From assembly GCF_009931435.1 (NCBI RefSeq), contig NZ_CP043414.1: a stretch of 64,000 bases of DNA; one strand, written 5' to 3'. The notes beneath the pieces are model-generated. The model was not told where the DNA came from, made no database searches, and was given only the letters and a program-made list of their open reading frames with translations. The position numbers were made by a program, and so were the translations under genes. This stretch comes from Escherichia coli (GTDB taxonomy: Bacteria > Pseudomonadota > Gammaproteobacteria > Enterobacterales > Enterobacteriaceae). Below are positions 6,919 to 44,395 of the stretch, piece by piece (position 1 is the first letter of the stretch; each line of letters opens with the position of its first letter).

Positions 6919-8093
6919 TGGATGTTTTTAATACTCCTATTTCCCGCAAAGGAACATATTGTACCCAATGGGACTTTTGCGAGGACAGATTTGGTGTAAA
7001 AGATGTATTACCATTCTCTATTTCAGATATGGATCTTCCGATACCGGAAGCTATCATCAGGGCATTAAAAAAACGTCTGGAACACCCGATTTTAGGGTAC
7101 AGCCGTTGGCAGCATGATGACTATCTGAATGCGATAGTCAATTGGTATCATCAACAATATAAAACTGAAATCAAACCAGAATGGATCACCTATAGCCCAA
7201 GCGTGATGTACTCCATTGCTAAAGCAATAGAGTTATTGACATCGCATGGTGATAATATTCTCGTTTTTACACCTGTCTATAATGCATTTTTTGATATAAT
7301 TAAACATAGCGAGAGAAATATTCTGACAGCCTCTTTGATTATAAAAAATGAGGGGGGCTACGCTATCAATTGGCAAGATTTTGATCTTAAGATTCAAAGC
7401 GCAAAGATGGTGTTATTATGTAATCCTCATAACCCGACAGGAACCGTCTGGTCGGAAGAAGATCTGCATAAAATCGCTGCAAGCTGTGCAAGACATAATG
7501 TCTGGTTATGTTCAGATGAAATTCACAGTGATTTTGTTTTTAATCGTAGCTTTACATCTGCGCTTAAAATAAAAAAAGAAAAAGTAGTGGTGTTTAATTC
7601 GATATCGAAGACATTTAATGTTCCTGCGCTAACAGGATCGTATATGATTTCAACTGACGATAATTTTAATCATGAGTTCAGAACGATATCAAGATATCGC
7701 GATTTTGTAAACTCCCCATCCGTACTGAATATAATTGCAACTATTATTGCCTATAACGAATGTGAGGGATGGTTAACGTCATTAAAGGCACATATTGCCT
7801 CTAACATTCAATTCACCCAGCAGTATCTGAACGAAAATACTCCAGAATTGATCGTAAGGCCTGCTGATGGTTGCTATTTTTCGTGGATAGATTGCTCTGC
7901 TATTGGTTATCCCTTTGATGAATTCTACAGTCGATTAATTCATGAAGGCAAAGTGGGCATTATGGCGGGGAATGTCTATGGAACGGAGGGGGAGGGCTAC
8001 CTTCGTCTGAACCTGGCCTGCGGTCGAGAAAAATTATATATGGGGCTTACGCGTCTTGCGAGTGTAATTAAAAATATTAATCAAGGAAAATAA
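6912..8093 (+). CDS. PLP-dependent C-S lyase / aminotransferase, MalY/PatB-like
   Basis: GTYCTQWDF..PFSISDMD..GYSRW and SISKTFN (PLP-Lys) motifs similar to E. coli MalY from memory; alternative start ATG 6918 overlaps PTS stop (TGATG). Confidence 0.8.
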   Translation: MLMDVFNTPISRKGTYCTQWDFCEDRFGVKDVLPFSISDMDLPIPEAIIRALKKRLEHPILGYSRWQHDDYLNAIVNWYHQQYKTEIKPEWITYSPSVMYSIAKAIELLTSHGDNILVFTPVYNAFFDIIKHSERNILTASLIIKNEGGYAINWQDFDLKIQSAKMVLLCNPHNPTGTVWSEEDLHKIAASCARHNVWLCSDEIHSDFVFNRSFTSALKIKKEKVVVFNSISKTFNVPALTGSYMISTDDNFNHEFRTISRYRDFVNSPSVLNIIATIIAYNECEGWLTSLKAHIASNIQFTQQYLNENTPELIVRPADGCYFSWIDCSAIGYPFDEFYSRLIHEGKVGIMAGNVYGTEGEGYLRLNLACGREKLYMGLTRLASVIKNINQGK

Positions 8094-12274: not shown

Positions 12275-12280
12275 ACAATC

Positions 12281-12316
12281 AGGTCGGATGCGACGCGAAC
12301 GTCTTATCCGACCTGG
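12281..12316. repeat. REP-like palindrome between convergent tcdA and csdE
   Basis: AGGTCGGAT...ATCCGACCT inverted repeat. Confidence 0.4.
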
Positions 12317-12324
12317 TTTTGTGC

Positions 12325-37708: not shown

Positions 37709-38067
37709 GAGTCAGACAACGAAGTGAACATCAGGATGATGACACTTCTGAAGGACACACCAGGAGGGTGTTTCAGGGAAAGGCTTCTGGATGAAGCGAA
37801 GAGGATGACGCAGGACGCGTTAAAGGACACCTCCAGGATGGAGAATGAGAACCGGTCAGGATGATTCGGTGGGTCAGGAAGGCCAAGGACACTTCAGGAT
37901 GAAGTATCATATCGGGGTGGTGTGAGCAGGAAGCAATAGTTCAGGATGAACGATTGGCCGCAAGGCCAGAGGAAAAGTTGTCAAGGATGAGCAGGGAGCA
38001 ACAAAAGTAGCTGGAATGCTGCGAAACGAACCGGGAGCACTGTGAATACAGTGCTCCCTTTTTTTAT
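37709..38067 (+). ncRNA. csrB: CsrB, CsrA-sequestering sRNA (~360 nt, many CAGGA(U/A)G repeats, terminal hairpin + U-run)
   Basis: Starts GAGTCAGACAACGAAGTGAACATCAGGATGATG; dense repeated AGGA/GGA motifs throughout; terminator GGGAGCACTGTGAATACAGTGCTCCC + T8. Confidence 0.9.
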
Positions 38068-38110
38068 TCCTGCTATCCTTCGCGGCAGTTTTTCTTATTG
38101 AGGTTGCTTT

Positions 38111-38440
38111 ATGACCACTCATGACCGCGTTCGTCTCCAGTTGCAGGCGCTTGAAGCGTTACTGCGTGAACATCAGCACTGGCGAAACGATGAACCCCAG
38201 CCGCATCAATTTAACAGTACCCAACCGTTCTTTATGGACACCATGGAACCACTGGAGTGGTTGCAGTGGGGGCTGATCCCGCGAATGCACGATTTGTTAG
38301 ATAATAACCAGCCATTACCGGGCGCTTTTGCTGTTGCACCCTATTATGAAATGGCGCTGGCGACGGACCATCCGCAACGCGCGCTTATTCTGGCTGAGCT
38401 GGAAAAACTGGATGCTCTTTTTGCGGATGATGCGAGCTGA
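38111..38440 (+). CDS. yqcC: DUF446 protein YqcC
   Basis: 109 aa; stop overlaps truC start (ATGA). Confidence 0.8.
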   Translation: MTTHDRVRLQLQALEALLREHQHWRNDEPQPHQFNSTQPFFMDTMEPLEWLQWGLIPRMHDLLDNNQPLPGAFAVAPYYEMALATDHPQRALILAELEKLDALFADDAS

Positions 38441-39222
38441 TGCTGGAAATAATCTACCAGGATGAATGGCTGGTTGCGGTAAATAAACCCTCCGGCTGGC
38501 TGGTTCACCGCAGCTGGCTGGATCGCGACGAGAAAGTAGTGGTCATGCAAACCGTGCGTGACCAGATTGGTCAGCATGTATTTACCGCGCATCGGCTGGA
38601 TCGACCGACGTCCGGCGTATTGCTGATGGGACTATCCAGCGAGGCCGGACGGCTGTTGGCACAACAGTTTGAACAGCACCAAATCCAGAAACGTTACCAT
38701 GCGATTGTGCGCGGCTGGCTGATGGAAGAGGCTGTGCTGGATTATCCGCTGGTGGAAGAACTGGACAAAATCGCTGATAAATTCGTCCGCGAAGATAAAG
38801 GTCCACAGCCAGCGGTGACACATTATCGCGGTCTGGCGACCGTAGAAATGCCTGTAGCGACCGGACGTTACCCGACTACGCGCTACGGTCTGGTGGAACT
38901 GGAGCCGAAAACAGGACGCAAGCATCAGCTCCGTCGCCATCTTGCCCACTTGCGCCATCCGATTATTGGCGACAGCAAACATGGTGATTTACGTCAAAAT
39001 CGTAGCGGTGCTGAACATTTTGGCCTTCAGCGGTTAATGCTGCATGCCAGTCAGTTGTCATTGACACATCCTTTTACTGGCGAGCCGTTGACTATTCACG
39101 CGGGCCTGGACGGCACCTGGATGCAGGCGTTATCACAATTTGGCTGGCGGGGTCTGCTTCCTGAAAATGAAAGGGTTGAGTTCAGTGCGCCATCGGGTCA
39201 GGATGGAGAGATAAGTTCCTAA
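38440..39222 (+). CDS. truC: tRNA pseudouridine65 synthase TruC
   Basis: RluA-family motifs ([12 protein letters not shown]); 260 aa. Confidence 0.9.
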
Positions 39223-39239
39223 TCCAGGGAGAAAACGGT

Positions 39240-39689
39240 ATGGCGGAAATTGGTATTTTTGTGGGCACAATGTACGGAAATTCGCTGTTAGTGGCGGAAG
39301 AAGCGGAAGCAATTCTGACCGCGCAGGGCCACAAAGCAACGGTATTTGAAGATCCTGAATTAAGCGACTGGCTGCCCTATCAGGATAAGTATGTTCTGGT
39401 GGTTACGTCCACGACCGGGCAGGGCGACCTTCCTGATAGCATTGTGCCGCTCTTTCAGGGAATTAAAGATACCCTGGGCTTCCAGCCGAATCTGCGTTAT
39501 GGCGTGATTGCGCTCGGCGACAGTAGTTATGTGAATTTCTGCAATGGCGGCAAACAGTTCGATGCCTTGTTGCAGGAACAGAGTGCGCAGCGGATAGGGG
39601 AAATGCTGCTGATTGACGCCAGTGATAACCCGGAACCGGAAACGGAATCAAATCCGTGGGTCGAACAGTGGGGCACGCTGTTGTCCTGA
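39240..39689 (+). CDS. yqcA: Flavodoxin-like protein YqcA
   Basis: 149 aa, flavodoxin fold ([11 protein letters not shown]). Confidence 0.85.
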
Positions 39690-39727
39690 AAAATTGCCGT
39701 TTTAAGCAAACTGAATCGAATCTTTTC

Positions 39728-39782
39728 AGGCAAATGCCAGTAAAAACTGCTTCATAGCGCGGATTTTTACTGGCGTTTGCCT
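39728..39782 (+). other. Long imperfect hairpin (19-bp arms AGGCAAATGCCAGTAAAAA / TTTTTACTGGCGTTTGCCT, 17-nt loop) downstream of yqcA
   Basis: Inverted repeat read directly; one G-U/mismatch; no clean U-run after it. Confidence 0.4.
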
Positions 39783-40108
39783 GGAGTCAAGCGATCCATT
39801 TCATACTCTTCTTTATTTCTTCGTTTTAATCCTTCCTTTCTTGTTCTTGTTTTCATTTCCGTGAAGTGGATTCCACCGTCCAGGGCTAATGCCAAAATCG
39901 GGCCTCATTGAACGCATTAATGTTGTGTTGTTGCACGGTGAGCCGCTATGGCGCGCTTTTTATACTGCTATTGCCAGATATAAACACGCGCCGTATTCGG
40001 CGAACGACCTATAAAAACGGCAAAAAACACCCTACGTCACCTCTGATTTCCTGGCGATGTCGCAGTCCAGAGTGAGCGTGGCTAACGCGAATTTTCAGGA
40101 GTGCAACA

Positions 40109-41461
40109 ATGAGTTCTTTAAGTCAGGCTGCGAGCAGTGTGGAAAAACGCACGAATGCTCGTTACTGGATAGTGGTGATGTTGTTTATCGTCACATCCTT
40201 CAACTACGGCGACCGCGCTACGCTCTCTATCGCCGGTTCGGAAATGGCCAAAGATATCGGCCTTGATCCTGTGGGAATGGGCTATGTGTTCTCTGCTTTC
40301 TCATGGGCTTATGTTATCGGGCAGATCCCTGGTGGCTGGTTGCTGGACCGTTTTGGTTCAAAACGCGTCTACTTCTGGTCGATCTTTATCTGGTCGATGT
40401 TTACCTTGCTGCAAGGCTTCGTCGATATCTTTAGTGGATTCGGCATTATCGTTGCCCTGTTTACGCTGCGCTTCCTGGTCGGGCTTGCTGAAGCGCCATC
40501 TTTCCCCGGTAACAGTCGCATTGTAGCGGCCTGGTTTCCGGCGCAGGAAAGGGGAACTGCAGTGTCTATTTTTAACTCCGCCCAATACTTCGCAACGGTG
40601 ATCTTCGCGCCGATTATGGGCTGGCTGACTCATGAAGTGGGTTGGTCACATGTCTTCTTCTTCATGGGCGGTCTGGGCATTGTCATCAGCTTTATCTGGT
40701 TGAAAGTCATCCATGAGCCAAATCAACATCCGGGCGTAAATCAGAAAGAGCTGGAGTACATCGCCGCGGGTGGTGCGCTGATCAATATGGATCAGCAAAA
40801 TACCAAAGTTAAAGTGTCGTTCAGCGTGAAGTGGGGGCAGATCAAACAGCTGCTCGGGTCACGGATGATGATCGGCGTTTATATCGGTCAGTACTGTATC
40901 AACGCCCTGACTTACTTCTTCATTACCTGGTTTCCGGTTTATCTGGTGCAGGCACGCGGGATGTCGATTCTGAAAGCGGGCTTTGTGGCTTCCGTACCGG
41001 CGGTTTGCGGTTTTATCGGCGGCGTGTTGGGGGGGATTATTTCAGACTGGCTGATGCGCCGCACAGGTTCGCTGAACATTGCGCGTAAAACACCGATCGT
41101 GATGGGCATGTTGCTATCAATGGTGATGGTGTTCTGTAACTACGTCAACGTTGAGTGGATGATCATCGGCTTTATGGCGCTGGCCTTCTTCGGTAAGGGC
41201 ATTGGGGCGCTGGGTTGGGCAGTAATGGCAGATACCGCGCCAAAAGAGATCAGCGGTCTTTCCGGTGGCCTGTTCAATATGTTTGGTAACATTTCCGGTA
41301 TCGTCACGCCAATCGCAATTGGTTATATCGTTGGCACGACTGGCTCCTTTAATGGGGCGCTGATTTATGTTGGTGTTCATGCCCTAATCGCGGTACTGAG
41401 CTACCTGGTGCTGGTGGGCGATATCAAGCGTATCGAGCTGAAACCTGTCGCGGGGCAATAA
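40109..41461 (+). CDS. gudP: MFS D-glucarate/galactarate transporter
   Basis: 450 aa MFS anion:cation symporter layout; first gene of gud operon. Confidence 0.9.
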
Positions 41462-44164: not shown

Positions 44165-44285
44165 GACAGAAAACCAAAACCGGCTCTGTCAGGAGCCGGG
44201 TTGAGTCTGATGCCAAACGCAAAATTGCTTGTTGCGCTACGTATCAGGCCTACATTATTTTTTTAATTCATTGAATTTAATTGGT

Positions 44286-44327
44286 GTTTATGCCGGATAA
44301 GGCGTTAACGCCGCATCCGGCATAAAC
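44286..44327. repeat. REP element (GCCGGATAAGGCGTTAACGCCGCATCCGGC palindrome) between gudD and barA
   Basis: Canonical REP-type palindrome read in sequence. Confidence 0.5.
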
Positions 44328-44395
44328 ACAGGCACCTTGTCACCAGTCTGAAACCAGCGTTATAAAAAGCCGATTGCTACTCGACAAGACGTCCA

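Follow-up and report, generated by a model that had tools for sequence, protein, structure and literature searches.

A long stem-loop downstream of yqcA in Escherichia coli as the probable 3'-terminal structure of a Rho-terminated mRNA

The long inverted repeat between yqcA and gudP in Escherichia coli is probably the 3'-terminal stem-loop of the yqcC-truC-yqcA mRNA, with Rho terminating transcription downstream of it and exonucleases trimming the transcript back to the stem. The repeat lies at positions 39728-39782 of the window, by which we mean the whole 64-kb stretch of E. coli DNA that was analysed; all coordinates refer to the window unless numbering of K-12 MG1655 is given. Our reading draws on a stable and conserved RNA structure, on a transcript 3' end mapped at its foot and on a published Rho-sensitive block between yqcA and gudP.

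Upstream of gudP (40109-41461) the + strand carries yqcC, truC and yqcA at 38111-39689. The last of these genes is yqcA (39240-39689), which encodes a flavodoxin; the boundaries of yqcA and gudP are those of the list of open reading frames and of the RefSeq annotation, for yqcA that of an identical strain and of MG1655. The gene for the small RNA CsrB is found upstream of yqcC at 37709-38068 (Rfam RF00018, 379.8 bits), and CsrB was the only Rfam match at E<=1 near the locus, both in E. coli and in the Salmonella, Citrobacter, Phytobacter and Raoultella loci. The hairpin starts 38 nt 3' of the yqcA stop codon, as against 53 nt in MG1655, because a 15-nt indel directly follows the stop codon; the same segment (39690-39712) also differs from MG1655 by several substitutions.

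The hairpin reads AGGCAAATGCCAGTAAAAA / CTGCTTCATAGCGCGGA / TTTTTACTGGCGTTTGCCT. Its arms of 19 bp, recovered by an inverted-repeat search at 39728-39746 and 39764-39782, and the 17 nt that separate them (39747-39763) agree exactly with the preliminary description, which had placed them between yqcA and gudP. Watson-Crick pairs occupy 18 of the 19 arm positions; the remaining one, T39735/G39775, is a G-U wobble when the + strand is read as RNA and is mismatched (A/C) on the - strand. RNA folding extends the structure to 39724-39786, with 23 bp in the outer stem, one bulged A and, at the apex, a mini-stem of 4 bp, at -40.1 kcal/mol (range to -40.3). What had been called a 17-nt loop contains in the fold a CUGC/GCGG mini-stem (39747-39750 paired with 39759-39762) closing an 8-nt loop, together with the bulged A. 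A calculation of folding energy had been proposed as a check and bears out the stability of the structure, with -34 to -40 kcal/mol and z = -8: the 55-nt RNA of the + strand folds at -34.2 kcal/mol (z = -8.0, none of 200 shuffles being as good) and that of the - strand at -27.6 kcal/mol. The hairpin was also described as unusually long, and it is indeed the longest inverted repeat with a gap of up to 40 nt in the 64-kb window; its arm sequence occurs at these two places only, with 0.02 occurrences expected by chance. The next-longest inverted repeats of the window are REP-like palindromes at 44284-44329 and 12277-12318, with the arms GCCGGATAAGGCGTT/AACGCCGCATCCGGC and GTCGGATGCGACG/CGTCTTATCCGAC. 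On the minus strand, an open reading frame of 42 aa with a TTG start, rich in K, R and E, runs through 39767-39895 and has its stop codon inside the 3' arm of the hairpin; some of the E. coli genomes in RefSeq annotate it as a hypothetical protein (WP_001296328.1). It is probably not a gene, as the segment that contains it varies between genera.

Does the hairpin have the makings of an intrinsic terminator? As criteria we took a short G+C-rich stem of about 5-14 bp with a loop of 3-8 nt, and at least 5 U among the 8 nt directly 3' of the stem. The stem found here measures 19-23 bp, has an A/U-rich centre and carries a 17-nt apical region, and the count of U falls short after the full stem and after the core stem alike. 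The sequence 3' of the hairpin, GGAGTCAAGCG, is devoid of a U-run. Past the full stem the tail reads GGAGUCAA or UCAAGCGA, with tail scores of -1.6 to -2.3; past the core (39736-39774), which on its own comprises 11 bp and the mini-stem, it reads GUUUGCCU, with 4 U in 8 and a score of -2.79. The threshold for such scores in TransTermHP is about -2.5. A consensus terminator scan called no + strand site in 39200-40300 and left the hairpin uncalled. The original observation that the hairpin is not followed by a U-run and is not a canonical intrinsic terminator is thus corroborated by a negative scan and a weak tail score.

Published maps of transcript ends contain a 3' terminus close to the base of the stem. 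The TRS study (Nat Commun 2023, PMC10687069) places a terminus of yqcA at 2922415-2922428 on the minus strand of MG1655, with dominant positions 2922417, 2922418 and 2922420, and classifies it as 'Distant primary' for yqcA with a 3' UTR of 118 nt. Mapped onto the window from Supplementary Data 2-4 of that study (PMC10687069), the steady-state termini fall at 39781-39794 on the + strand, with peaks at 39789, 39791 and 39792. The signal at the terminus is 0.57-0.89, a high value denoting little local readthrough, and the terminus appears in at least three table entries, including RNAtag-seq and Term-seq of the same RNA (PMC10687069). The peaks lie 3-6 nt past the extended stem and 7-10 nt past the 19-bp arms, that is, a stable stem-loop without a U-tract stands directly upstream of the steady-state 3' end, in maps of a kind that cannot separate termination from processing. 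No terminus falls inside the stem (2922427-2922481) among the TRS entries listed (PMC10687069). In the comparison of 3' UTR and CDS expression made in the same study (PMC10687069) yqcA is no outlier, which makes a small RNA derived from its 3' UTR unlikely. The curated Term-seq lists of Adams et al. 2021 (PMC7815308) contain no 3' end of yqcA or gudP.

A dependence on Rho is suggested by a second dataset. Adams et al. 2021 (eLife, PMC7815308) list a bicyclomycin-sensitive Rho termination region at 2922118 (-) of MG1655, which corresponds to 40091 on the + strand of the window at a resolution of about +/-800 nt (Supplementary file 2). The 3'-end counts upstream and downstream of it are 114/23 in the untreated sample and 112/90 with bicyclomycin (Rho score 3.98, p = 9e-8; PMC7815308), and they were obtained in 800-nt windows, in which readthrough from yqcA is not separable from events in the gudP leader. 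The region could instead reflect premature termination of transcripts started at the gudP promoter; the data place a Rho-sensitive block to readthrough somewhere in the yqcA-gudP intergenic region. Directly downstream of the stem, a composition scan finds a C-rich, G-poor and T-rich stretch at 39785-39862 (+ strand), a candidate rut region. The 78-nt segment beginning at 39785 has a C/G ratio of 2.5, in the top 0.5% of all 78-nt segments of both strands of the 64 kb, so the C-rich, G-poor downstream RNA typical of Rho-dependent terminators is found here. The bias of C over G in this downstream segment is kept in 27 of 31 genera, with a median C/G of 2.2 over the 31 related intergenic regions. 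A literature search returned no paper pairing yqcA with gudP, nor gudP with Rho-dependent termination.

What could be the mechanism that forms this 3' end? The untranslated RNA past yqcA would fold into the 23-bp stem with its 4-bp apical mini-stem, and most polymerases would continue past it because the stem has no usable U-tract. Rho would then load on the C-rich, G-poor RNA just downstream and stop transcription before or around the start of gudP, and 3'-to-5' exonucleases would remove the tail as far as the base of the stem. The outcome would be a defined and protected 3' end a few nucleotides past the stem, with the inducible gud operon shielded from upstream transcription. Such an arrangement has been described by Dar and Sorek 2018 (NAR, PMC6061677), who found Rho-dependent E. 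coli transcripts that end precisely and directly after stable stem-loops lacking a U-tract, with rut sites just downstream of the stem-loops and with tails trimmed back to the stem by PNPase and RNase II; their stem-loops have stem lengths, loop lengths and folding energies like those of intrinsic-terminator hairpins (PMC6061677). The anatomy of the yqcA site matches this description point by point: the stem-loop stands directly upstream of a precise 3' end, it has no U-tract, C exceeds G directly downstream of it, and a bicyclomycin-sensitive block is present in the same intergenic region. The stem is, however, much longer here, with 23 + 4 bp and -40 kcal/mol. For yqcA we infer Rho dependence at the mapped end and trimming, together with the loading of Rho on this particular C-rich stretch and the stabilisation of the mRNA by the stem.

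The stem probably protects the 3' end of the yqcA transcript. The idea of protective 3' stem-loops on Rho-dependent transcripts reportedly began as a hypothesis of Peters and colleagues in 2012. A Rho-dependent pause was among the first suggestions for the hairpin. Of those suggestions the link to Rho alone is supported, given the bicyclomycin-sensitive region, the stretch with more C than G and the 3' end at the foot of the stem; the notion of a pause is better replaced by that of a structure defining or protecting the 3' end of a Rho-terminated transcript.

The hairpin is a single-copy, chromosomal, core feature of E. coli. A sensitive blastn search recovered the 81 nt around it in 5425 of 5426 complete E. 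coli genomes, once per genome and, in 4318 of the genomes carrying it, at an identity of at least 99%. The hairpin of K-12 MG1655 is identical to that of the window, in an intergenic region that bears no annotated feature between yqcA and gudP, and BL21 has a C>T change in the loop. The hairpin was absent from the phages searched, and the 'plasmid' matches were all chromosome-sized records of 4.8-4.9 Mb. Conservation and transcript ends at the site, the joint absence of which had been named as the observation that would speak against a role for the hairpin, are therefore both on record, in 5425 of 5426 genomes and in the TRS termini. In strain EC6563 gudPXD has been lost and the hairpin is kept beside yqcA; the sequence of this strain matches the window to about 39829 and is then joined to the side of the gudD terminator and barA. 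In strain 2014C-4135 the sequence is rearranged directly after GTCAAG.

Single copy in E. coli and absence from phages also rule out a repeat family or mobile element. With REP/BIME elements the hairpin shares its nature as an intergenic palindrome at the 3' end of a gene, and a REP-like hairpin takes the equivalent place in Enterobacter and the C. freundii group; it differs from them in occurring once per genome, in lacking a REP consensus and in having an A/U-rich mid-stem. It does not belong to this class, as each of the 5425 E. coli genomes has it at exactly one place and the window contains no second copy.

Where does such a stem come from? A scan for YqcA with one genome per species yielded 80 loci; throughout Enterobacteriaceae, gudP is as a rule the gene that comes after yqcA. 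The intergenic region shows two tiers of conservation. Every genus keeps the gudP-proximal part, from about 39851 onwards. The hairpin-bearing part is shared by Escherichia, Salmonella, Citrobacter koseri/amalonaticus/sedlakii, Superficieibacter, Silvania, Kosakonia, Phytobacter and Raoultella and is missing in Enterobacter, the C. freundii group and Lelliottia; many of those without it have a REP-like GCCGGGTAAGGCG...CCCGGC hairpin after yqcA instead.

What is conserved across genera is a core hairpin, GCCAGTAAAAA...TTTTTACTGGC at 39736-39774 on the + strand (-19.2 kcal/mol), delimited by alignment, pair counts, RNAalifold and energies; its helix GCC.GTAAAA / TTTTAC.GGC is preserved in the aligned homologues. 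This core is homologous to terminator-like hairpins of Citrobacter and Salmonella, which are followed by GTTTTCAT or TTTTCATA and fit a simple terminator pattern on the + strand at -12 to -22 kcal/mol. The tails of these relatives, GUUUUCAU/UUUUCAUA, score -3.2 to -4.3, as against -2.79 in E. coli. In Escherichia the tail at this position (39775-39782, + strand) is GTTTGCCT in every lineage but one, which has ATTTGTCT; from the alignment and the tail scores, GTTTGCCT appears to be a degenerate remnant of an ancestral U-tract, which elsewhere reads GTTTTCAT. Two substitutions separate the U-tract GUUUUCAU from the Escherichia form GUUUGCCU, and GTTTGCCT pairs with a pre-existing upstream AGGCAAA (39728-39734). 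The substitutions in the U-tract therefore made the stem longer by 7 bp and at the same time removed the U-tract. As judged from the alignment, the 7 outermost pairs of the 19-bp arms are a derived extension, specific to Escherichia, into which the U-tract has been absorbed. The best reading of the comparison is that the hairpin descends from an intrinsic-terminator-like hairpin and that the site has shifted towards Rho dependence.

The apical region is freely rewritten and is the fastest-evolving part of the hairpin among Escherichia lineages, two of which have the loop wholly replaced between identical arms. The distance from arm to arm is not constant either, with a change of 10 nt in Salmonella and 1 nt in others.

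A second hairpin, (G)CCCTCCCCCTACnGGGAGGG(C), directly follows the yqcA stop codon in most non-Escherichia genera and has been lost in Escherichia. Because most other genera have this second hairpin after the stop codon, the ancestral role of the hairpin studied here as 'the' yqcA terminator is uncertain. The second hairpin was recorded in 15 loci within the first ~35 nt after the stop codon; in Salmonella and Citrobacter it has the form CCCTCCCCC...GGGAGGG, and a T-run comes after it in Salmonella. The conserved blocks GCCAGTAAGCAA and AACGACC, which lie 3' of it, are also missing in Escherichia. Across genera the compact stems after yqcA are of HP1, REP-like or HP2 type and, on a qualitative assessment, mostly lack U-tracts. 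That every genus has an unusually strong hairpin after yqcA is not borne out by folding energy, a metric that does not discriminate in this case, with a median of -22.2 kcal/mol in coding controls as against -19.2 kcal/mol.

The descent from a terminator-like hairpin would make the site a natural example of the proposal of Dar and Sorek that an intrinsic-type terminator can turn into a Rho-dependent, stem-only 3' end through a few substitutions in the U-tract. In the present case the substitutions also lengthen the stem, and in Escherichia they coincide with the loss of the second hairpin after yqcA. The hairpin also fills a gap in annotation, since it allows the 3' boundary of the yqcC-truC-yqcA transcript to be marked. 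It is otherwise an ordinary feature, unannotated and of a well-known kind, and opens no new question.

The pattern of substitutions suggests that the structure is one of RNA and belongs to the yqcA transcript. Cells of the alignment that pair as G-U on the + strand only number 75, as against 39 A-C cells that would pair on the - strand only. The Escherichia substitutions in the stem all leave a wobble on the + strand: a C>T change in the 3' arm of E. whittamii and its relatives, a C>T change in the 5' arm of strain IAL7250, and the U-G pair of the reference itself. This asymmetry, together with the 3' end mapped on the + strand, is the basis for placing the structure in RNA. Covariation is weak. 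Pairs with double changes number 8, as against 9.2 in shuffles, and 11 of 500 shuffles attained the covariation score; RNAalifold gives a covariation term of 0.04, with double changes in 2 of 12 core pairs among sequences that are close to one another. One position, formed by alignment columns 49-81, is compensatory, with A:U in 7, C:G in 8 and U:A in 3 sequences. The full stem of 19-23 bp is paired in only 69% of cells across genera because its outer 7 bp are specific to Escherichia.

Could the hairpin still terminate transcription by itself? A non-canonical intrinsic terminator, in which the stable hairpin would release polymerase a few nucleotides past the stem and Rho would serve as a back-up, seems unlikely to us, and several observations nonetheless speak for it. 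The hairpin comes after the final gene of an operon, its apical stem is flanked by an A-tract (UAAAAA) and by a U-run (UUUUUA), and the homologues in sister genera, those of Citrobacter and Salmonella, fit the pattern of a hairpin followed by a U-tract such as GUUUUCAU. The core hairpin at -19.2 kcal/mol, with the 4 U in 8 of GUUUGCCU and its score of -2.79, is another argument on this side. The mapped ends, at 7-10 nt past the 19-bp arms, lie at a distance typical of intrinsic release, and TRS signals of 0.86-0.89 indicate little local readthrough. However, the RNA at the mapped end reads ...CCUGGAGUCAAG and offers no U-rich hybrid, and the leftover UUU sits within the extended stem. The U-runs of E. 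coli are likewise inside the stem, the tail past the stem being GGAGUCAAG, and the apical stem that precedes the internal U-run has only 4 bp (-3.9 kcal/mol), unlike the stems of intrinsic terminators. The consensus scan passed the site over, and the block in the intergenic region is sensitive to bicyclomycin.

A processing or retroregulatory site for RNase III or another endonuclease is very improbable. It would require that the stem of more than 22 bp present in readthrough RNA is cleaved and so controls the decay of the yqcA operon mRNA, in the manner of lambda sib. The length of the stem is what recommends this reading. RNase III accommodates a duplex of about 22 bp (Altuvia et al. 2018), a length that the 23 contiguous predicted pairs with their 4-bp extension reach. 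The extended stem, moreover, can form only after polymerase has transcribed the counterpart of the old U-tract. The lambda sib/tI retroregulator is an RNase III site created by terminator readthrough. At the yqcA site, too, transcription past a terminator-like core permits a longer duplex, predicted to be of a size suited to RNase III; unlike in sib, the stable 3' end of yqcA falls after an intact stem. We give little credence to a conditional element of the sib type, created by the lengthening of the stem to more than 22 bp in Escherichia, in which transcripts that stop early would keep a protective hairpin and readthrough would complete a duplex that RNase III can cut. If it were true, the stability of the yqcC-truC-yqcA mRNA would respond to readthrough by feedback or, in the reverse form, the element would gate the upstream transcription that reaches gudPXD. 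The suggestion of an RNase III or RNase E processing site made in the preliminary description found no support, as the published termini lie just outside the stem and none lies inside it among the entries listed; nor did the literature contain a paper linking yqcA to RNase III.

Very improbable as well is a function at the level of DNA, either as a palindromic operator or other protein-binding site far upstream of gudPXD or as a promoter or terminator of the minus strand. In its favour, conservation of the arms is mainly conservation of sequence rather than covariation, and the flanking blocks are conserved, too. Two of these lie downstream of the hairpin, GTCAAGCGAnnnnnTTTCA(C/T)AnTC at 39786-39808 and TTTTCATTTCCGTGAAGT at 39850-39867 (loci L004-L083), and their GTCAAGCGA-to-TTTTCATTTCC spacing is 75-76 nt in each of the 31 genera compared; the intervening sequence is variable and remains richer in C than in G. 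This fixed spacing suggests either that the DNA upstream of gudP has a set architecture or that the leader is constrained. In most genera the block at 39786-39808 contains a CRP-like GCGA-N6-TCACA. Words resembling GGCAAATGCC occur again at 39884 and 39967. On the minus strand, a promoter-like TTGACT-16-AAAAAT (39790-39763) overlaps the 3' arm and the GTCAAGCGA block, and in Phytobacter the T-run is found on the minus strand only. The promoter-like element would start an RNA antisense to the 3' end of yqcA.

On the other side, promoter-like matches are no commoner than in shuffled sequence, the spacing of the arms varies (by the 10 nt and 1 nt given above), and the wobble asymmetry favours RNA of the + strand. 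The inferred start of gudP lies about 215 bp downstream of the hairpin's centre. The hairpin remains with yqcA where gudPXD has been deleted, and Enterobacter and the C. freundii group are without the hairpin yet keep the gudP promoter region. The motif common to the promoters of gudP and the co-regulated garP is found elsewhere, at about 39935-39966. An operator for CdaR or another regulator was rejected, as the arm motifs are absent from the garP-garD control region except for one 8-mer. The early suggestion of a protein-binding element of the gud operon found no support, with the shared motif some 170-200 bp downstream of the hairpin and with wobble pairs that favour + strand RNA. As to the motif itself, the regions upstream of gudP and garP share TTGCAC(A/G)(A/G)TGA...CGCGCT..TTATACT, at 39935-39966 of the window and at 7000-7045 of the MG1655 garP-garD locus (L084). 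It probably combines a -10 element (TATACT, 39961-39966) with a site for the common activator CdaR.
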